From: an uncultured Ruminococcus sp.
GTDB taxonomy: Bacteria; Bacillota; Clostridia; Oscillospirales; Acutalibacteraceae
DNA: 64,000 nucleotides
Direction: 5' to 3'
Assembly (NCBI GenBank): GCA_964555975.1
Contig: CAZKUO010000001.1
Coordinates: 36,825-100,824, forward strand
Positions within the stretch are counted from its first letter, which is position 1, and each line of letters starts with the position of its first letter. This document shows positions 52,154 to 63,708 of the stretch, piece by piece. The notes beneath the pieces are model-generated. The model had not been told where the DNA came from. It was given only the letters and a program-made list of their open reading frames with translations, and ran no database searches. Position numbers and translations under genes: made by a program.

Positions 52154-53763
52154 TGAATGACCTCCCCGAAAAGGATAATATGGAAAAAGATAATATTTTG
52201 AACGAGGTCGAGAATGTTGAGGAGGACGGTGCTTCCACCGTCTTTTCCGACCCAGTTCGGCATAATGAAGCACAGCCGGTGCGCGGCAAAAAAAAGCTGT
52301 TGCCCGCAGTAATAGCGGCCGCTATTGCGGTTTGCCTGCTTGTGGGCGGCACGGTTGCGGTAATTAAGCTTGTTCCCGAGCGAGAGGACACAAGCTCAAC
52401 CCCCTCACTTGATGCAATTACCGTGCTTGATTTGGAAACGGATGAGCTTGCCTCCGTTACCGTGACAAACGCGAGCGGAACCTTTAAGCTTTACTCCGAG
52501 GAGGTAAGCTCTGAGGAAAAGGATGAGGATACCTCAAGCTCGGATACGAAAATCGAGTGGTATCTTGACGGGTACGATAAGGAAGTTATAAGCTCCTCAT
52601 CGGCTTCGGGTATTGTAAGCAGTGCGGCCTCCGTTACCGCTTCAAGAGAGGTTACCGCCAAAACAGCCGCCGAATGTGGGCTTGAAAGCCCCGCAATCAG
52701 GGTGGATTATGTGAAGAAGGACGGAACCGAGCTTTCGTTGCTTATCGGTAACACATCACCCGACAGCACGGGAACTTATATTAAGCTTTCAACCGATGAT
52801 AAAATTTACATTAATGATGCTTCGGTAGATTCATCCCTTGAATTTGATGCGCTGAGCCTTGCCGCGACCGATGCTTTGGCGGGTGTTACGGTTACGGATG
52901 CCATGTCGGATTATACCGATGATAACGGTGCGCTTGCCTCGTTTGATACCATAACACTAAGCGGTGCCAAATTCCCCGAAAAGCTGATTTTGGCTCCCAA
53001 TACCGATGAAAATCTTTCGGATTACGCAGCCTATATAACCCTTGCACCCACAAAGCGCATTGCCGATAAGGTGGACGGTATTTTTGAATTTTTCAAGAGC
53101 GGCACTACGGTAAGCGGTGCGTACTCGTTTGATACCTCGGCCGCAGAGCGCAAAAGGCTCGGGCTTGACAGCCCCGACCTTATTGCCGAAATTAAAATCG
53201 GCGGCCTTACACAAAGCTACAGCTTTAAGCAGCAGGCGGACGGCGATTACGCCGTGTGGTATGACGGCTGCAAGCTTATCAAAAAGCTTTCGGCCTCGGG
53301 GATTGAATTTATCAATTACACGGTAAACGATTATTATTCATCCTGGGTGTGCCTGCAATCAATAAACGAGCTTTCGGGCTTTACACTGAAAACGGCCGAC
53401 AAAACCTACAGCTTCGGTATAGTTTATGATGACAGCGAGGATGCCGAGGAAACCTACGTTATAACCTATAACGGCAATAAGCTCACTGCTGAGAATTTCC
53501 AAAGCTTTTATCAGGAGTGCATTTCGCTTTCCTGCACCGATTATACCGTTGACGAGGCAAATAACGGCGCGGTTGAGGTAACAATGGTGTTTACCTATTC
53601 CGATACCTCACGTGAGAACACTGTGGTTGAATTTGTAAAATCGGGTGCCGCTAAGTATCAGTACAGCATAAACGGCATTAAAATGGGTAAAATCAATTCC
53701 TCCGCACTTAACAAAGTGGTAAAGTATGCGGAAAAGGTTGCAAATAACGAAAGTGTAAAATAG
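52150..53763 (+). CDS. DUF4340-like membrane-anchored protein (usual partner of GldG-like genes)
   Basis: 537 aa with one N-terminal TM helix. ATGA overlap with the upstream gene. Family assignment is from architecture and context only. Confidence 0.55.
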   Translation: MMNDLPEKDNMEKDNILNEVENVEEDGASTVFSDPVRHNEAQPVRGKKKLLPAVIAAAIAVCLLVGGTVAVIKLVPEREDTSSTPSLDAITVLDLETDELASVTVTNASGTFKLYSEEVSSEEKDEDTSSSDTKIEWYLDGYDKEVISSSSASGIVSSAASVTASREVTAKTAAECGLESPAIRVDYVKKDGTELSLLIGNTSPDSTGTYIKLSTDDKIYINDASVDSSLEFDALSLAATDALAGVTVTDAMSDYTDDNGALASFDTITLSGAKFPEKLILAPNTDENLSDYAAYITLAPTKRIADKVDGIFEFFKSGTTVSGAYSFDTSAAERKRLGLDSPDLIAEIKIGGLTQSYSFKQQADGDYAVWYDGCKLIKKLSASGIEFINYTVNDYYSSWVCLQSINELSGFTLKTADKTYSFGIVYDDSEDAEETYVITYNGNKLTAENFQSFYQECISLSCTDYTVDEANNGAVEVTMVFTYSDTSRENTVVEFVKSGAAKYQYSINGIKMGKINSSALNKVVKYAEKVANNESVK

Positions 53764-53813
53764 CTTTCTCGTCGGTATCCGTTTGCACGCACAGAAATAT
53801 AATTTATTTAACC

Positions 53814-53853
53814 TTACGGGGGTCGTTTCATAAAAATGAAACGACCCCCGTAA
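53814..53853 (+). terminator. strong hairpin terminator after the ABC/GldG/DUF4340 operon
   Basis: TTACGGGGGTCGTTTCAT-AAAA-ATGAAACGACCCCCGTAA: a perfect 18-bp stem. Confidence 0.8.
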
Positions 53854-53903
53854 ATTATATCAGGTTTTTTGATTGGAATACATAAATACTCATCAATTAG
53901 GTC

Positions 53904-53933
53904 TTGACAAAATAATGCGGGGGGGGGTATACT
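53904..53933 (+). promoter_or_regulatory. near-consensus sigma-70 promoter with a G9 tract in the spacer
   Basis: TTGACA (53904-09), 18-nt spacer AAATAATGC+GGGGGGGGG, TATACT (53928-33), 50 nt upstream of the ATG at 53983. Confidence 0.7.
53919..53927. repeat. homopolymeric G9 tract
   Basis: Nine consecutive G directly abutting the -10 hexamer. Confidence 0.95.
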
Positions 53934-53982
53934 ATTTAAGTATATTATTTTAGAAATTTTGCCATGAAAAGAGGTTGATGTA

Positions 53983-55131
53983 ATGCGGAAAATCGGTCGC
54001 GGAGCATTTTGCTTATTTGCGGCTTTTATTATCTTTCTTTCATCTGCCGAAAGACTTGGAGCGGAAAGCAATGATGTTTCATTTACGGCCGACAGCAAAA
54101 GCTTTGCCGTGCTTGATGAGTATGCGCGAATTTGGACTGAATTAAAAAAGCCCGTGGGCGCAGAGGTTACCACCGCCGGAATTTACCTGTGGCGAAGTGA
54201 CAGAGACCGACCCGAAAGCCCCACTTATACCGAGTATTTTTCAAAATACGATAACTATGCTTCGGTTTCCTCTTTGCCTATAAATTATCGTGTGGGTCAG
54301 CATGAAGAAGTGAAATTCAAGCTTTTGCCGAATACCGAGTATTATTGCTTGGTTTTTTGTGTGGTGGACGGAATTTATTATGAAACGGGAGAAATTAAAT
54401 TTCAAACAGAAGCAGAAATGAAGCCGTTTGATTTTGAAAAAACAGGCGATTATGCAAACGACCTTGTCCTTGCGGCACTTTCTCAAAATGGTTATTGTGA
54501 GCTATCTGCTTCAAATGGACTGCCCCTGGAAGACGGAAATGGGCTTTGGTACACTAAATACGGGGCGGCATACGGTAATTCATCGGGCGCATGGTGTGCA
54601 TTTTTTGTGTTGCGCTGTGCTAAAGCTGCGGGAGTACCCACTGATATTATTCCTCAACAATCAGCACTCGGGAATTGCGGAGTGTTTGTTGAAAAGCTGA
54701 AGAATGCGGGACGTTGGCGTGAACCGGATTTCACCCCACGCCGCGGAGATTTGATTTTCTTCGATTGGGGTGATGACGGTAACGCAAGTCATGTGGGAAT
54801 AGTAATGTCAGCAGATGAAAATGTAATTTACACGGTTGAGGGCAATGTTTGTGCGGACGAAAACGGAGATTTATCGGAAAAAGGGAGGTATCAGGTTACT
54901 ACCGCTGAACGGAGCGAGCATATATTAGGCTATGGTGCAGTATCTGAAGCTCTTTTCGGTGATGTTGACGGTGACGGAGCAGTCAATTTTAATGATGTTA
55001 AATCAATTTTAAAATTTGATGTAACGGGAGAGGGAATAGCTGCTGTTACCACGGCTGATTTGAACGGCGACGGAAAAATCGATGCCGCCGATGCGGGTAT
55101 CTTATACAGAAAACTTAACAGGGGAGAATGA
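53983..55131 (+). CDS. secreted CHAP-domain peptidoglycan hydrolase with C-terminal dockerin
   Basis: Signal peptide. CHAP catalytic pattern: GAWCAFF (Cys codon 54595-97), ASHVGIV (His codon 54790-92), YTVEGN. Dockerin duplicated Ca-loops DVDGDGAVNFND and DLNGDGKIDAAD (about 54955-55116). Confidence 0.8.
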   Translation: MRKIGRGAFCLFAAFIIFLSSAERLGAESNDVSFTADSKSFAVLDEYARIWTELKKPVGAEVTTAGIYLWRSDRDRPESPTYTEYFSKYDNYASVSSLPINYRVGQHEEVKFKLLPNTEYYCLVFCVVDGIYYETGEIKFQTEAEMKPFDFEKTGDYANDLVLAALSQNGYCELSASNGLPLEDGNGLWYTKYGAAYGNSSGAWCAFFVLRCAKAAGVPTDIIPQQSALGNCGVFVEKLKNAGRWREPDFTPRRGDLIFFDWGDDGNASHVGIVMSADENVIYTVEGNVCADENGDLSEKGRYQVTTAERSEHILGYGAVSEALFGDVDGDGAVNFNDVKSILKFDVTGEGIAAVTTADLNGDGKIDAADAGILYRKLNRGE

Positions 55132-58100
55132 ATATGAGAAAAATCAAAAAATTTTGTGCTGCTTTTTTAGTAATGATTTTGACCGTTTTAAGCTTTTCGG
55201 CTGCATTTACGGTCAGTGCGGCAAACTTAACGGAAGAAGAATTTGCCGCTAAAATAGCGCAGTTGAAAACAGAGTATCCTGACGGAAAGTATTGGTCGGA
55301 TAAAAACGGTACTGTTAAAAGCGGCAAATACAAAGGAACATCTTTGGTTGGAAATAAGAAATGCAGCAAATCGTATGGTTGGTGTTCATACTGTGGAACA
55401 TTTGCTCTTAACGGTACATATCTGGCATGGCAGTGTCACGGATATTCACTCTTATTAGCTCACAAAATATTTGGTAGTAATGCAAACGATTGGCCTAAAG
55501 CAAGCGATAAAAAATTATACGCCGGCGATGTGGTGAGAATAGATCTTGACGGTGACGGCATCAATGATGACTACGATCACACTATATTTGTCTACAAAGT
55601 TACATCATCAAATGTGTATTATACAGATTGTAATGGCAGTGATCCGTGCCAAATCAGATGGACAAGTGAATCTTACACAAAACTTAAGAAAAAAATACTT
55701 TATATAAGGCGATATAAAGGAAATACATTGACGGGAACAGGCTCTTCCTCCTCATCTTCCTCATCAACAGACAATACTGTCCATAAAACAACCGAAACAT
55801 TGGTATATAACGGAATTTATACGGTTAAGAACGCATCATCAGGCAAGATGCTGAATGTTTATGCAGGTGTAAATTCAGACGGTACAAAGCTTACAACTTG
55901 GGATAGGGACGGAACTACCGATCAAAAATTTTATGTAAAGCACAACGGTGGGGGAAAATATCGGCTTTATGCTGTAACCTCTAAAAGCGGAAGCAACTAT
56001 GAAAGAGCGGTAGACATTAACATAGGCAGTGACGGAGCTTTGGGAACAGGTGACGATTACGGTGATATATGGTCCTGTTCTTCCTGGGATGATTGCCAGC
56101 AATTTTATTTGGTGCCGCAAAGTGACGGCAGCATTGTTTTGGAGCTTGCCTCAATGTCGGGAATGGTTCTTGCAAGCAAAAATGCAACCGAGGCAAATAA
56201 AAACGGCGGAGCAATAACCCTTTCAAGCTATAACGGAGCAAACACGCAAAAATGGTTTTTCTGCAGCGAGGACGGCACAGAGGTTTTAAATCCGACTGCA
56301 CGCTACAGCTTTTCCTATGACGGTAACGGTGCGGAAAGCGGCAACGGGGAAGCATTTACAATATATCCCGGTGAAAGCTTAACCGTAATAGCAAATCCAT
56401 TCACTCGTAGCGGGTACAGCTTTGCGGGGTGGAATGTTAACAGAAAATCCGATAATACCTGGTATGTTGCGGGAAAGGGTTGGAAAACAGAAACAGAAAT
56501 TGCCGAAAACGGATATACAAAGAAAACCTATACTCCCGGCTTGTCATACACTATTGACGCAACATGGACAAACGGAAGCAACTCGACAGAAAGCTTTGCG
56601 TTCAATGCTGTGTGGAGTAAAAATGTAAGCAGGCTTGTGTTTGATGCAGAAGGCTTTGAAACAATTTCGGTCAACACCGGTGACAGTGTCACAATACCCG
56701 ATTTTATTCCCGAAAAGGAGGGTCACAGCTTTTTGGGCTGGGCAACATATGAGGCTGCCGAGGAAGCAAGCTTGCTCCCGGGAGAGAGCTTTACACTTGA
56801 TGGTGATTTGACACTTTACCCTGTGTGGTACGATGATACAATAGTAAATATTTATTTAAAGACTAAGCCGTCCAAGCAGATATATGCGGTGGGTGACAAT
56901 GTCGACACAGCGCAGGTATCGCTTTATGTGGAGAAAAACGATGGCAGTGTTGAAACTGTGACAAGCGGATTTAAGTGTGATAAAACAAGAATTACCGCGC
57001 TTGGTAAAAACACCGTTAATGTAAGCTATAAAATGCGTTCTGTTGCATTTACGGTGACTGCGGTAAGCTGTCCGGGATATACTTCCGCAAAGGCAACCGC
57101 CAAAAAGCTCACCTACCTTTTACCGAGTACATCCTCAAAAACAACCATGGGGCTTTCTGTTGACGAGGTTTATAAGGATGATGTGTGTAAAATAATCTGC
57201 AAGGATGGGGATTTTTACCTCATAGAATATCCTTATGTTAAGTGGAATGTTTTTTCTTATGTGAGTACGGCGGCATTTTCAAATGTCAGCGGAGTACCGG
57301 ATGCTTCGGAGGTATATTCAAATATTTCGGCAGTGACGAACAAATCAACACCGGTATATCACCGCCCGTCAACCGATAAAATGATAAGCAGCAACGGCAA
57401 CGGAGACTTAACACTTATTGATACCTTGTCTAAAGGAAGAACGGTAACGGTTTTATTCGAATATAACGGGTATTATTATATTCGCACATCATCTTATACC
57501 GGCTTTGTTGCTAAAAGCGCTTTGACATTTGAGGATGATGCGGAAAGTGTAATGCTTGAAACCGCCGGGAAATCCGAATTTGATTTGGGTGAAAGCTTCA
57601 GTTTGGGCGCTACTGTTCTTTCGGCAAAATATACCAACGGAAAAACAGAAAGCGTTTCTTCGGGATTTAAACTTTCGGCACCTGAAATCGATGGTGAAGG
57701 TAACTATAATGTTTTTGTGGGTATTGATGATGTTTATACCTATTATAGCATACGAGTTGCCGAAAAAGAAATTGAAAGCATAGCAATTAACACCTATCCT
57801 TCGGCTAAACACTACATCAATGAGCCGATTAATTTGCAAGGCATGACTATAAAAGCTATTTATACCGACGGTACAGAAAAGATTATCGATTACGGATTTG
57901 AAGTAATCGGTAGCATTACGCGCATTGGAAAAAATACGATTTCCTGTAAATATAAAAATCATACCGCATCCCTTGATTTGGAAGGTTGCGAGCGTACACA
58001 TATTGATTTTTCAACCGCATCAGGTAGAATCAATTCGGAAATTTCCGTAAGTGTATCACTTGTTCCGTCTGAAGCAGTTTATGACGGCAGTATATTGATA

Positions 58101-58577
58101 CATTACGATGCAAAAAAGCTCAGACTTAACGGCATCACGCCGAACACAAATATTCCGGACGGAACAATGATTGAGTATAATTCGGAATATGGCACCGGTC
58201 TTGCGAAAATCTCTTTTATAACCGATAGCGGAGCAGATGCAACTGTTTTGCTGGCATCCCTCAAATTCACGGTTTTAAAAGGAGCATACGGTAGTGCTGA
58301 AACAAGTGTTAATGCCAAAACCGCTTTTTACGACAAGGACGGCGACCCGCTTGATTATGTAATTAAGAGCGGTGAAGTTGAGATCGTCAACGAAATCGGT
58401 GATGCAAATTGTGACGGTTATGTCGACATTCGTGATATGGTACACATTAAAAAGGCAACTTCCGGCTTAGAATATAAGGAGTCCTGCGACTTCAACAATG
58501 ATAAGCTTAATAACACGCTTGATATTACTTTGCTTAAAAAATTCATTCTCGGATTATTGAAAAGCTTTGCGAATTGA
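55128..58577 (+). CDS. large secreted multidomain protein: Cys/His peptidase-like domain, ricin-B lectin, Listeria-Bacteroides repeats, Ig-like and SH3-like domains, cohesin and dockerin
   Basis: 1149 aa. Signal peptide ending TVSA. WQCHGY/DHTIFV Cys-His pair and a poly-Ser linker. Three QxF/W ricin repeats (DQKFYV, CQQFYL, TQKWFF). GYSFAGWN and GHSFLGWA repeats and Big_3-like modules. ATGA overlap with the upstream gene. Confidence 0.8.
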   Translation: MNMRKIKKFCAAFLVMILTVLSFSAAFTVSAANLTEEEFAAKIAQLKTEYPDGKYWSDKNGTVKSGKYKGTSLVGNKKCSKSYGWCSYCGTFALNGTYLAWQCHGYSLLLAHKIFGSNANDWPKASDKKLYAGDVVRIDLDGDGINDDYDHTIFVYKVTSSNVYYTDCNGSDPCQIRWTSESYTKLKKKILYIRRYKGNTLTGTGSSSSSSSSTDNTVHKTTETLVYNGIYTVKNASSGKMLNVYAGVNSDGTKLTTWDRDGTTDQKFYVKHNGGGKYRLYAVTSKSGSNYERAVDINIGSDGALGTGDDYGDIWSCSSWDDCQQFYLVPQSDGSIVLELASMSGMVLASKNATEANKNGGAITLSSYNGANTQKWFFCSEDGTEVLNPTARYSFSYDGNGAESGNGEAFTIYPGESLTVIANPFTRSGYSFAGWNVNRKSDNTWYVAGKGWKTETEIAENGYTKKTYTPGLSYTIDATWTNGSNSTESFAFNAVWSKNVSRLVFDAEGFETISVNTGDSVTIPDFIPEKEGHSFLGWATYEAAEEASLLPGESFTLDGDLTLYPVWYDDTIVNIYLKTKPSKQIYAVGDNVDTAQVSLYVEKNDGSVETVTSGFKCDKTRITALGKNTVNVSYKMRSVAFTVTAVSCPGYTSAKATAKKLTYLLPSTSSKTTMGLSVDEVYKDDVCKIICKDGDFYLIEYPYVKWNVFSYVSTAAFSNVSGVPDASEVYSNISAVTNKSTPVYHRPSTDKMISSNGNGDLTLIDTLSKGRTVTVLFEYNGYYYIRTSSYTGFVAKSALTFEDDAESVMLETAGKSEFDLGESFSLGATVLSAKYTNGKTESVSSGFKLSAPEIDGEGNYNVFVGIDDVYTYYSIRVAEKEIESIAINTYPSAKHYINEPINLQGMTIKAIYTDGTEKIIDYGFEVIGSITRIGKNTISCKYKNHTASLDLEGCERTHIDFSTASGRINSEISVSVSLVPSEAVYDGSILIHYDAKKLRLNGITPNTNIPDGTMIEYNSEYGTGLAKISFITDSGADATVLLASLKFTVLKGAYGSAETSVNAKTAFYDKDGDPLDYVIKSGEVEIVNEIGDANCDGYVDIRDMVHIKKATSGLEYKESCDFNNDKLNNTLDITLLKKFILGLLKSFAN
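57996..58391 (+). other. cohesin-like module of the 1149-aa protein
   Basis: aa ~957-1088: FSTASGRINSEISVSVSLVP...ILIHYDAKKLRLNGITP...LASLKFTVLKG. This alternating beta-strand pattern resembles cohesins. Assigned by eye only. Confidence 0.55.
58392..58556 (+). other. dockerin module of the 1149-aa protein
   Basis: GDANCDGYVDIRDMVHIKK ... CDFNNDKLNNTLDITLLKKFILG: a duplicated EF-hand-like Ca-binding loop plus helix. Confidence 0.75.
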
Positions 58578-58653
58578 AGCGATGTAAAAAGAACTTCGTT
58601 TAAAATAACTGTTGACAAGCAGGGCAATTTAGCTTAAAATAAATAAGCAGTAG

Positions 58654-58692
58654 AGGCTGTACCCTTAAAAAAGGGTGCAGCCTGATTTTCTG
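58654..58692 (+). terminator. rho-independent terminator after the CHAP/cohesin operon
   Basis: AGGCTGTACCCTT-AAAAA-AGGGTGCAGCCT followed by GATTTTCTGTT. Confidence 0.7.
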
Positions 58693-60170: not shown

Positions 60171-61808
60171 GTGGGTGACACTGTGATTATAAACCGAAAA
60201 AGTTTGCTTTGCTTTATTCTTGCACTGCTGTTTTGCTTTATGTGCGGCTGTAAAAAGGCGGATGATGTGGTGAGTGAGCCTTCCTATAGCAGTGTGCAGG
60301 TGGACACCGAGCTTGTTGCAGATGACACTGCCGACCCCGAAAACAGCGAGATTAAAAGCGAAATCGGCGCGCAAATCAGTGCCGAGGAGCTGACTGCCAA
60401 GGCAGGCAAGGCCAATGGAATAGATGTTTCCAAATGGCAGGGGAGGATAGATTGGAGCAAGGTTGCGTCCTCCGGTATTGATTTTGCCATGATTCGCATA
60501 GGCTTTCGCGGGGAAAACGGAATTATATATCGTGATACCTGCGCCGATTATAACATTCAGCAGGCGGAAAAGGTCGGAATTGCGGTGGGTGTTTATTTCT
60601 TTTCCACTGCTGTTGACACGGAGGAAGCACTCAAGGAGGCCGAGTGGACGGTTGCGGCAATTGCGGGATATTCCATTTCCTGCCCGGTGGTGTACGATTG
60701 TGAGGGCTTTTTGAACAGCGGCAGTCGAATGTACGGTATTTCAAGCGAACAGCGAACCGATAATGCACTTGCGTTTTTAAATTCGGTTAAGTCTGCGGGA
60801 TATGAGGGAATGCTTTATTCCGCCGTGAGCGAGCTTGCGGCTTCAAAGTATTGGCAAACCAAAAGGCTTGAAAAGGAATTTTCCGTTTGGGTGGCACGTT
60901 ATCCCGAGGTGCCATACCCCAAAACCGAGCAGCCGGGCTACAGCGGCAGATACGATATGTGGCAGTATACCGATAACGGCCGTGTAAACGGGATTGACGG
61001 CAACGTGGATTTATCGGTTGCATATTTTGTGCCCACACCGAAAAATCCGAAAAACAGCTCTGCAAGGCCCAATGCTGCCGAAGCCCCAAGCGAGAACGGA
61101 GATGCATATTATTCCGCGGCCGAGGCTGATGTTACGCCGAAAATAGAGGTTAATTTGCGTGCCGCCGCCACAACAAAAAGCAGTATTGTGGCAACGGTTA
61201 AAAACGGCACCGTGCTCAAGCGCAAGAGCGTGGGTACAAACGGTTGGTCGCGCCTTAGCTATAACGGTCAAACCGTTTATGCAATAACAAGCTATCTCAC
61301 AACCGATATCGGCTATCGTCCGCCCGCAGATGACGGCTTTGCGGCAGCAGAGGGACAGGTTACAGCAAAGGATGAAACCAATTTACGCGCCGCCCCCTCT
61401 ACCGACAGTGAAATTGTGGCCGTGATAAAAAACGGCGATTTTGTTAAAAAAACGGGCGAGAACAGAGCGGGTTGGACACGGCTTGACTATAACGGAAGGA
61501 CGGTTTACGCAAAATCAAGCCTGCTTACAACCGAGGTTCGGGAAATTACCGATGTTACACCCTCGGCAAATGACGGCTTTACAGCGGCGGGCGGCAGATT
61601 TACCGCAAAGGATGAGGTGAATTTACGCTCCGCACCGAACGGCAAGGAGGATAATGTTGTGTGTATGCTCAAGCGCGGCGATTTTGCCGAGCGGCTCGGC
61701 ACTAACGGCGGTAAGGGCTGGACAAAGCTTTTGTATAACGGGCAAACGCTTTATGCGGTATCAAGTATGCTTTTGTCCGAGGAGGAATTTAACTCGGCAG
61801 AGCAATAA
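60171..61808 (+). CDS. GH25 muramidase (lysozyme) lipoprotein with three C-terminal SH3b repeats
   Basis: Lipobox-like LLFCFMCGC. GH25 start GIDVSKWQGRIDW...DFAMIRIG and DMWQYTD. Three ~70-aa SH3b repeats. The start may be the GTG at 60171 or at 60183. Confidence 0.85.
   Translation: MGDTVIINRKSLLCFILALLFCFMCGCKKADDVVSEPSYSSVQVDTELVADDTADPENSEIKSEIGAQISAEELTAKAGKANGIDVSKWQGRIDWSKVASSGIDFAMIRIGFRGENGIIYRDTCADYNIQQAEKVGIAVGVYFFSTAVDTEEALKEAEWTVAAIAGYSISCPVVYDCEGFLNSGSRMYGISSEQRTDNALAFLNSVKSAGYEGMLYSAVSELAASKYWQTKRLEKEFSVWVARYPEVPYPKTEQPGYSGRYDMWQYTDNGRVNGIDGNVDLSVAYFVPTPKNPKNSSARPNAAEAPSENGDAYYSAAEADVTPKIEVNLRAAATTKSSIVATVKNGTVLKRKSVGTNGWSRLSYNGQTVYAITSYLTTDIGYRPPADDGFAAAEGQVTAKDETNLRAAPSTDSEIVAVIKNGDFVKKTGENRAGWTRLDYNGRTVYAKSSLLTTEVREITDVTPSANDGFTAAGGRFTAKDEVNLRSAPNGKEDNVVCMLKRGDFAERLGTNGGKGWTKLLYNGQTLYAVSSMLLSEEEFNSAEQ
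61128..61790 (+). repeat. three tandem SH3b-encoding repeats inside the GH25 gene
   Basis: Repeated pattern (V/F)T(P/A)K.E.NLR(A/S)AP...GW(S/T)(R/K)L.YNG(Q/R)T(V/L)YA..S.L occurs three times. Confidence 0.8.
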
Positions 61809-62068: not shown

Positions 62069-62827
62069 TTACTGCACAGGTTTTTTAAATATAAACAAAT
62101 ACTCATGTGCTATAAGCAAAAAGTTATATTTCACGCTATTTGTTTTCCAATATCCTGTTGCTTTGCAATTGTGTTGTTCTTTTATAATCAATTCTTTCAG
62201 TTTAAATCCGGCATCTTCAAAAATACGCATAACATCAAATGACATTGGTATCATACAGCCTTTTTGTCTTGTGTCACCCATAAGAATTGCACAGAACTTG
62301 TCCTTTTTCAGAACACGATAGCTTTCTGCCGCAACCTTTTTCATTTCCTCAAGAAAATCCTTTACTTTAAGTTGCGATAAATCACCGTCAATGCCATCAC
62401 TGTATTTTATAATATCAGCATACGGCGGGTGAGTGCATATTAAATCAATGCTTTCATCGGGAACAAAATCAAGATTTCGTGCATCACCCTTTTTGATATA
62501 TACCCTGCCTTTTGCCGGTTCATATTCAAAATCCGTCTTTTCTCGGCATCTTTCAAGTGCAATATCATTTATATCAACACCGATTATATCCCGATTTAAA
62601 AGCTTTGCTTCAACAAGCGTGGTTCCGCCTCCGGCAAATTGATCAAGCACTAAATCGTTTTCTTTTGAATAACGGAGGAGAATATTTCGGGGTATATACG
62701 GTGACCAATTGCCACGCCATTTTGCATCGTGCGTTGCCCAATTACCACGCTTCGGAAATGACCAATGAGTAGTCGTTTCAAGCTCAAAATCTCCCGGAGC
62801 ATATTTTTTGATTTTCTTTTCTGCCAT
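62069..62827 (-). CDS. SAM-dependent DNA methyltransferase (motif I before motif IV; HPPY)
   Basis: 252 aa. VLDQFAGGGTT (FxGxG) lies upstream of ICTHPPYADII. The start codon overlaps the stop of the R.DpnII-like gene. Confidence 0.7.
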   Translation of the reverse strand: MAEKKIKKYAPGDFELETTTHWSFPKRGNWATHDAKWRGNWSPYIPRNILLRYSKENDLVLDQFAGGGTTLVEAKLLNRDIIGVDINDIALERCREKTDFEYEPAKGRVYIKKGDARNLDFVPDESIDLICTHPPYADIIKYSDGIDGDLSQLKVKDFLEEMKKVAAESYRVLKKDKFCAILMGDTRQKGCMIPMSFDVMRIFEDAGFKLKELIIKEQHNCKATGYWKTNSVKYNFLLIAHEYLFIFKKPVQ

Positions 62828-63708
62828 TATTTAAAGACCTCTTGAATTATCCCGGTTTCCATATCATTGATATTATAAATGTGTTCCATAACATCAAAAG
62901 TTTCTTCAAGGTTATGTTTTGCATTTGTCCAACCCTTGCCATCCGTAAACCATACAAAAGTAAATCCGTCTATTGTATCGGTTTCAAGAGCAAGCGTTTT
63001 GTAGCTGCGTGCGGTTTCGTTAAGCTTTGAACCTTTGCTACCGTAAAAATTCGTTTCTATACCGTAGATCATATTGTCAGTTTTAACCACATAATCAAAT
63101 CGTTTTTCTGTTTTACCTTGATTTGAAATTGCAGATAAATCAATGCCCCATTTTTCGGTAATTTGATGAATATACATCTCTTTGTAGAAGTTTTTATTTT
63201 TTACAAAGCCTGCTTTTTTGATAAAGCCTTCAACCAAATTCTCCATAATGTGGCCGCCGCGATTTTTACGACCGTTGGAATCTAGCCCTGTTTCAACGCC
63301 GGTTACATAGTCAACCAAGTTGTTTACAATATGATTGGCCATTAAATCAAACAAGCCTGTTTTGCGCATGAAGACCTTGTATTGTTCTGCATCAAGATTA
63401 GGTTTCTTAAAATTATATGTAAATTCGCCGTCACTGTCTATTGCGTACATCTCATTTGACCGTACTGCCAAAAGTAAAGGAATACATTTTAAAACTTCGG
63501 GATATTTTTTAATTAAATTTTCAAAATCCGCTTCAATATTTTTAGAACCGATAAGGGAATTTAAGATATTAAGTTCAACCTTGATATTATCGACATTTCT
63601 GTGAACCTTTTCAAAATCTATGTAATAACCATAATCTGCGATACTGTCACGAAAACCGGATAACCATTCGTTAAAATCTCTGTTAGCCATATTTTTTATA
63701 CCCCTCAA
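62827..63708 (-). CDS. type II restriction endonuclease, DpnII/MboI family (GATC)
   Basis: 293 aa. Long colinear similarity to R.DpnII as I recall it (FNEWLS, NSLIGSKNI, LVDYVTGVE.G.D.NGRKNR, KRFD, FYGSKGSKLNETARSYK, YNINDME). Confidence 0.85.
   Translation of the reverse strand: MRGIKNMANRDFNEWLSGFRDSIADYGYYIDFEKVHRNVDNIKVELNILNSLIGSKNIEADFENLIKKYPEVLKCIPLLLAVRSNEMYAIDSDGEFTYNFKKPNLDAEQYKVFMRKTGLFDLMANHIVNNLVDYVTGVETGLDSNGRKNRGGHIMENLVEGFIKKAGFVKNKNFYKEMYIHQITEKWGIDLSAISNQGKTEKRFDYVVKTDNMIYGIETNFYGSKGSKLNETARSYKTLALETDTIDGFTFVWFTDGKGWTNAKHNLEETFDVMEHIYNINDMETGIIQEVFK

Follow-up and report, generated by a model that had tools for sequence, protein, structure and literature searches.

The activity of sigma-70/sigma-A promoters depends on the spacing between the −35 and −10 hexamers, which is the basis of the spacing model considered below, and in Mycoplasma hyorhinis poly-A tracts in the vlp promoter spacers switch surface proteins ON and OFF, so the principle works in a Firmicutes-related lineage. 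For Neisseria meningitidis, a poly-G tract between the −35 and −10 boxes of porA has been described, in which one-base slippage away from 17 nt grades or abolishes transcription (van der Ende et al., 1995, as listed in the references of PMC5084427 and cited in PMC7864442). In Treponema pallidum, tp0126, which encodes an OmpW homologue, carries poly-G between the same two boxes and is best expressed at 17 nt (Giacani et al., as cited in PMC7864442); according to the same source, the promoter poly-G tracts of tp0126 and tprE/G/J/L are 7–12 long, and lengths of 7–11 G coexist within isolates (PMC7864442). TA repeats in the promoter spacer of hifA/hifB switch surface proteins ON and OFF in Haemophilus influenzae (work cited in PMC5084427). 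Among gut bacteria, G11–12 tracts control the sortase-pilus surface structure of Bifidobacterium breve, for which both length heterogeneity and in vivo enrichment have been shown (PMC9187656), while the invertible promoters of cwpV, flgB, cmrRST and pdcB bring about phase variation of surface and behavioural genes in Clostridioides difficile (PMC11868660). In the literature found, phase variation of gut commensals takes the form of DNA inversion (Bacteroides, C. difficile), methylation or the Bifidobacterium coding-sequence G tract, and promoter-spacer homopolymer switches are described mainly in pathogens (Neisseria, Haemophilus, Treponema, Mycoplasma). C. difficile is the sole member of Clostridia mentioned in a review of phase variation, and with invertible promoters only (PMC11868660). 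In our literature search, neither a homopolymer switch in a promoter spacer of Clostridia nor phase-variable cohesin-dockerin or CHAP genes came up; one review has the terms, but separately. An earlier reading of this DNA from its letters and open reading frames (the sequence-only reading) had stated that such a switch was not known for cohesin-dockerin or lytic-enzyme genes in Clostridia, and this agrees with the literature searched.

The window, that is, the whole 64-kb stretch of DNA analysed here, carries a tract of nine G in the promoter spacer of a two-gene operon (Table 1). As in porA, the poly-G lies in a sigma-70-type spacer before a surface-protein gene and its length varies between strains; unlike porA, which encodes an outer-membrane porin of a Gram-negative pathogen and whose expression has been measured, the present locus is an island-borne cohesin-dockerin/CHAP operon of a gut Clostridia commensal, and the effect on its expression is predicted. 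The position of the poly-G within the −35/−10 spacer is also that of tp0126, although T. pallidum is a spirochaete with several such loci per genome, whereas one tract was seen here in 64 kb. The vlp and hif systems differ in their repeats (A or TA, against G in the window) and in having many paralogous variable genes. B. breve is the nearest case of a Gram-positive gut commensal with a G tract at surface genes, but its tract lies inside coding sequence and switches the translational frame rather than promoter spacing. C. difficile also shows phase variation within Clostridia, but by site-specific DNA inversion and not by a simple-sequence repeat. Judged by its testable sequence-level features, all of which were found, the locus would belong to the porA/tp0126 class, in a new taxon and a new gene class.

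The sequence-only reading had described a near-consensus promoter, TTGACA-18 nt-TATACT, with G9 making up half of its spacer, and both the coordinates and the letters proved exact. Its spacing arithmetic is likewise right, as G8 corresponds to 17 nt, G9 to 18 and G10 to 19. By sequence consensus only, the promoter matches at 11 of 12 positions, with its end 50 nt 5′ of the ATG of the CHAP gene, and it was the top-ranked promoter-like site within 52–56 kb in a consensus scan. The whole window contains five sites with at least 11/12 matches where composition-matched shuffles give 0.98 ± 0.93 (about five times chance), and four of the five lie directly 5′ of a correctly oriented gene (53904, CHAP; 58612, FAD; 23914 and 15899, both on the minus strand). 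This enrichment, together with the placement before genes, indicates that the canonical sigma-A consensus is informative in this organism. When window sites matching at 10/12 or more are grouped by spacer length, enrichment is highest at 17 nt (14 against 4.9 expected, both small numbers). Alternative registers of the promoter were considered and rejected: neither the shifted −35 hexamers TGACAA and GACAAA nor the downstream TATATT can be paired with an acceptable second hexamer, so a longer tract could not be compensated by a shifted hexamer. An intramolecular G-quadruplex formed by G9 alone was ruled out, neighbouring G runs being absent. No second copy of the 228-nt intergenic region was found in the window or in any fetched locus.

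The tract stands out against the homopolymer content of the genome. It is the longest run of any base in the window, where A and T runs reach at most 8. The sequence-only reading had called it the only long homopolymer noticed, which holds for G/C runs and for overall length but not for A/T, runs of 7–8 of these bases being common. Counted by length, G/C runs fall from 60 at five nucleotides to two at six and none at seven or eight, followed by the single promoter G9. Under a second-order Markov model, 12.3 G/C runs of at least 6 would be expected and three were observed, a fourfold depletion, while for runs of at least 9 the expectation was 0.12 and one was observed. With so sharp a cut-off after length five, this genome seems to avoid G/C runs strongly. 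Loci from related Clostridia, 580 kb in all, contain G/C runs of at least 8 nowhere but at this same promoter tract. G9 is thus both long enough to slip (about 7–8 or more G/C) and over-represented relative to expectation.

Table 1. Features of the poly-G promoter, its operon and the surrounding island, in positions of the window
Feature	Positions	Strand	Remarks
Accessory island (hairpin, poly-G promoter and operon), 4.85 kb	53755-58601	+	Presence/absence among strains
Hairpin, stem about 17 bp	53814-53853	+	Between the DUF4340 stop and the promoter; -34.7 kcal/mol, z = -6.97 vs shuffles
-35 hexamer TTGACA	53904-53909	+	Consensus 6/6; unchanged in each related contig reaching it
Promoter spacer AAATAATGC+GGGGGGGGG	53910-53927	+	18 nt with G9 (window); 19 or 20 nt with the longer tracts of other samples
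Poly-G tract (variable element)	53919-53927	+	G9, spacer positions 10-18; abuts the -10 box
-10 hexamer TATACT	53928-53933	+	Consensus 5/6; without a TG extended -10 motif
Predicted start region and short 5′ UTR	53934-53982	+	Putative start near 53940
Shine-Dalgarno AGAGG	53970-53974	+	8 nt before the ATG
Gene 1, secreted CHAP (peptidoglycan amidase/peptidase) protein with type I dockerin, 382 aa	53983-55131	+	
Gene 2, modular surface protein, 1149 aa	55128-58577	+	Start overlaps the gene 1 stop by 4 nt
GC-rich hairpin followed by GATTTTCTG	58654-58683	+	Also at the empty site in island-less strains (L090, L094)

Tract length was compared among contigs whose CHAP protein is identical to that of the window or falls within its 90% cluster. 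This CHAP-dockerin protein is uncommon, with one 100%-identical cluster, one sister cluster at 74% and, beyond these, distant domain matches only. Across five assemblies the tract was G9 in the window and in SRR25400536 (L086), G10 in SRR36265369 (L002/L097) and SRR36265364 (L003/L098), and G11 in SRR36265362 (L005); G8, which would give the 17-nt spacer, was absent. Tract length is the sole difference between the window and L002, L003 and L005 over 52585–55268 or the part of it that each contig covers (at most 2.7 kb), and L005 is identical to the window over 1268 nt apart from two extra G's. In these short-read assemblies, tract length is therefore polymorphic between close strains on unchanged flanks, and the comparison with related strains and metagenome-assembled genomes that the sequence-only reading had proposed shows that it is not invariant. 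Further alleles were sought more widely. The species was not found in JGI metagenomes, where an exact 36-mer from the UTR and a scan guided by the CHAP protein returned nothing or relatives at 35–42% identity; the best match in a scan of GTDB representative genomes was the sister species (74% protein identity), which is without the tract; and variants of the DUF4340 protein encoded upstream yielded no extra tract alleles, only island-less strains or a contig ending before the tract.

Downstream of the promoter, the genes are those claimed by the sequence-only reading, with Pfam identifying a CHAP-dockerin protein and a cohesin/dockerin protein in an overlapping operon. Gene 1 has a signal-peptide-like N-terminal sequence and scores above the curated cut-offs for CHAP (1.1e-10) and Dockerin_1 (5.9e-8; 33.2 bits, cut-off 22.9), and its sequence matches in the PDB are dockerins and the endolysin Lys2972. 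Gene 2 is composed, in order, of an N-terminal CHAP-like module, a poly-Ser linker and Ricin lectin, Flg_new, Big_3, SH3, cohesin and dockerin modules; its Cohesin (37.1 bits, cut-off 24.1) and Dockerin_1 (24.3 bits, cut-off 22.9) matches are accompanied by PDB dockerin matches. The operon thus encodes cohesin and dockerin modules above curated thresholds, as expected of a cohesin-dockerin (cellulosome-like) system, and its linkage suggests that the gene 1 dockerin may bind the gene 2 cohesin. Both reading frames are intact in all strains examined. An origin as a prophage or endolysin cassette was considered and is unlikely, the CHAP matches to phage endolysins being distant (30–37%) and phage context absent.

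Strains that are about 99.7% identical elsewhere carry exchanged versions of the N-terminal module of gene 2 (aa ~45–205; window 55269–55710). The module is a weak CHAP (E 7e-4) in the window and in the sister species, a Cys-rich module with no Pfam match in L002 and L003 (L002 4288–4788), and a clear CHAP (E 3e-15) in L086 (~1807–2374). To judge from these sequences, the swap looks like cassette-like shuffling of a lytic domain.

Promoter and operon form part of an accessory island with a GC content of 0.42–0.43, against about 0.48 for the window. The island is absent from L094–L096, which belong to the same species (98.6% nucleotide identity in the flanks), and from L090–L092, which represent a neighbouring lineage (85–89% flank identity). 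At the empty site in both groups, window position 53752/53754 is joined directly to 58602, so that the DUF4340 stop meets the next promoter. L086 belongs to the L090 lineage (DUF4340 3′ end 95.8% identical), yet carries the island at the identical junction. With carriers and non-carriers in each, both lineages, which differ from each other by about 10–14% in the flanks, are polymorphic for the island. No obvious target-site duplication or mobility gene was seen at the island junctions.

In the sister species, a Hadza-gut MAG labelled 'uncultured Eubacteriales' whose CHAP protein is 74% identical, the gene pair stands in another context, with a divergent LytTR response regulator and histidine kinase 5′ and a tRNA gene 3′. 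Its upstream region is unrelated to that of the window and the G tract is absent, so the tract is not an ancient feature of the gene pair. Two copies of a 23-bp palindrome, ATCAAAARGTATACNTTYTGATA, precede the operon there (L006 3699–3722 and 3846–3869), and the LytTR response regulator and a GHKL histidine kinase occupy L006 1216–3215 on the minus strand; neither this pair nor the palindromes occur in the window. The palindromes and the LytTR pair suggest that the sister species regulates the two genes differently, in a deterministic way.

The island-carrying member of the neighbouring lineage allows the promoter to be viewed against its surroundings. From the −35 box to the base before the ATG (53904–53982), L086 shows 0/79 differences from the window and keeps G9, while it differs at 7/46 positions (15%) just 5′ of the −35 box, at 66/1149 in the CHAP gene and at 45/437 in the DUF4340 gene; overall, its lineage has about 6–10% nucleotide divergence from the window in this region. 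The absence of changes amid diverged surroundings indicates that the promoter core and UTR are under constraint. No Rfam family came near its gathering score as a riboswitch or leader RNA in the leader, where only chance hairpin matches were found. An uninterrupted tract whose length alone changes on short time scales is the pattern that would be expected of a contingency repeat, and the strain comparison together with the conservation of the promoter supports the view of the sequence-only reading that the tract is a candidate phase-variation switch.

We consider it moderately probable that the G tract is a slipped-strand contingency element in a sigma-A promoter spacer, of the porA/tp0126 type, because it fits both what is known of sigma-70/sigma-A promoters and these direct precedents. 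Replication slippage (slipped-strand mispairing) would add or remove G's and thereby change the −35/−10 distance. The 17-nt spacing of G8 would be optimal, the 18 nt of G9 active and sub-optimal, the 19 nt of G10 weak, and the 20 nt of G11 essentially off. The surface CHAP/cohesin-dockerin complex would in this way be expressed in a graded or ON/OFF manner, and the population would contain heritable but reversible subpopulations with or without this lytic/adhesive complex on their surface. That the promoter is in use, that tract length sets transcription, that switching is frequent and reversible and that it has adaptive value we infer from the sequence. The gene class and context are typical of contingency loci, comprising secreted surface proteins, a strain-variable island and a swapped lytic module, and the locus as a whole bears marks of diversifying selection.

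A real and hypermutable tract could also be functionally neutral, in a promoter that is unused or before an operon that is dispensable and decaying. We regard this as unlikely. The island is indeed dispensable, as some strains of the species lack it, the sister species has no tract, and only the sub-optimal or long alleles (9–11) were seen and G8 never. As all alleles lie at or beyond the sub-optimal side, they would also fit a decaying or unused promoter; that none of the five observations is G8 could mean that OFF or low states are favoured in vivo, or equally that the promoter is drifting. However, the −35 box, the −10 box and the whole UTR are invariant despite 6–15% divergence nearby, which argues for a promoter in use, a neutral G9 should have been interrupted or lost in a genome that so strongly avoids G/C runs, and both reading frames have remained intact in all strains.

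It is less likely still that the length differences are a sequencing or assembly artefact at a G homopolymer whose true length is fixed, so that there is no switch. All tract lengths come from short-read assemblies in which read depth is not visible, and four runs with neighbouring accession numbers may stem from one study rather than being independent. Illumina reads deteriorate at G tracts and beyond them (the "G's end" artefact; PMC9187656), and Logan contigs can arise from low k-mer abundance. Five of the eight Logan contigs end less than 50 nt from the tract (L003, L004, L005, L087, L099), which marks the site as technically difficult: L099 starts at exactly G9, L087 at G6, L004 8 nt past the tract, and L003 and L005 49 and 26 nt upstream of it. 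These starts were considered as a sign of within-sample heterogeneity in the de Bruijn graph and rejected as such, since L099 fits a G9/G10 branch and L087, L003 and L005 do not; the breaks are compatible with mixed alleles and equally with the Illumina G-tract artefact, and are thus uninformative. On the other hand, in the G11/C11 controls of that paper about 94–97% of lengths were correct, consensus calls at G11 included (PMC9187656), so the majority length is normally right and error alone is unlikely to account for samples whose majority calls differ (G9, G10 or G11). Two independent runs of the same strain type both gave G10, three different lengths were assembled with perfect flanks, and errors would leave unexplained why G9 sits exactly in the spacer of a conserved promoter. 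Given that the tract breaks short-read assemblies, such loci are likely fragmented or mis-called in MAG catalogues.

Spacer sequence near the −10 box affects sigma-70 promoters, and the 3′ nine of the 18 spacer bases are here all G and abut that box. Mechanisms other than spacing have been discussed for opc (poly-C, with regulator binding proposed) and tprL (PMC7864442), but that the tract acts as a regulator binding site or as a rigid GC-rich spacer tuning open-complex formation is very improbable here, as no regulator gene is linked to the island, the near-consensus hexamers do not obviously need an activator, and the spacing model explains the geometry without extra assumptions. On that alternative view, tract length would count via binding or rigidity, or have no effect.

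If the slipped-strand spacing switch works as proposed, commensal Firmicutes would also use such repeats for bet-hedging, and the signature could be mined from metagenomes. It would also be the first link of such switching to cohesin-dockerin assemblies or secreted peptidoglycan hydrolases, and would bear on strain-level heterogeneity, interbacterial antagonism and phage or IgA evasion. A wider reading is possible, if doubtful: that this is the first simple-sequence-repeat transcriptional contingency locus in gut Clostridia (Oscillospirales-like), a stochastic switch of a cohesin-dockerin hydrolase/lectin complex on a species-exchanged island, in which bet-hedging replaces the deterministic control of the sister species. 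Should it be true, the complex might act as a weapon against its bacterial neighbours, or be a target of phages or the immune system.

The surroundings of the island show several further features. Upstream lies an ABC-transporter-associated operon whose last gene, encoding the DUF4340 protein, has its stop at 53763. In L093 (349–1958; SRR20681285), which is 99.5% identical to the window, the DUF4340 gene is split into two called ORFs (186 and 350 aa), by either a frameshift/pseudogene or a sequencing error. The hairpin between this gene and the poly-G promoter has a very stable stem, but the T6 run starts 14 nt after it and the consensus terminator scan did not call the hairpin; it is terminator-like and may insulate the operon from upstream transcription. 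The GC-rich hairpin and T-run just 3′ of the island probably form the end of the operon's transcription unit, judging from their sequence. In the same stretch (58612–58690), a promoter with 11/12 matches, TTGACA-17-TAAAAT, is followed about 14 nt later by this hairpin and T-run, before a FAD-dependent oxidoreductase gene. A promoter running into a terminator-like hairpin of the same orientation hints at a leader or attenuator, unless the hairpin is the terminator that originally closed the operon upstream. Island-less strains keep this arrangement at the empty site, and in L094–L096 the sequence past the hairpin also differs from the window. Two genes 3′ of the island, a GH25 lysozyme with multiple SH3 domains (60171–61808), conserved in L097 and L098, represents a second cell-wall hydrolase near the island. 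Further on, 62069–63708 on the minus strand encodes a DpnII-type restriction endonuclease (E 5e-111) and an N6/N4 DNA methylase at a GC content of 0.356 against 0.48, probably a horizontally acquired GATC restriction-modification system.
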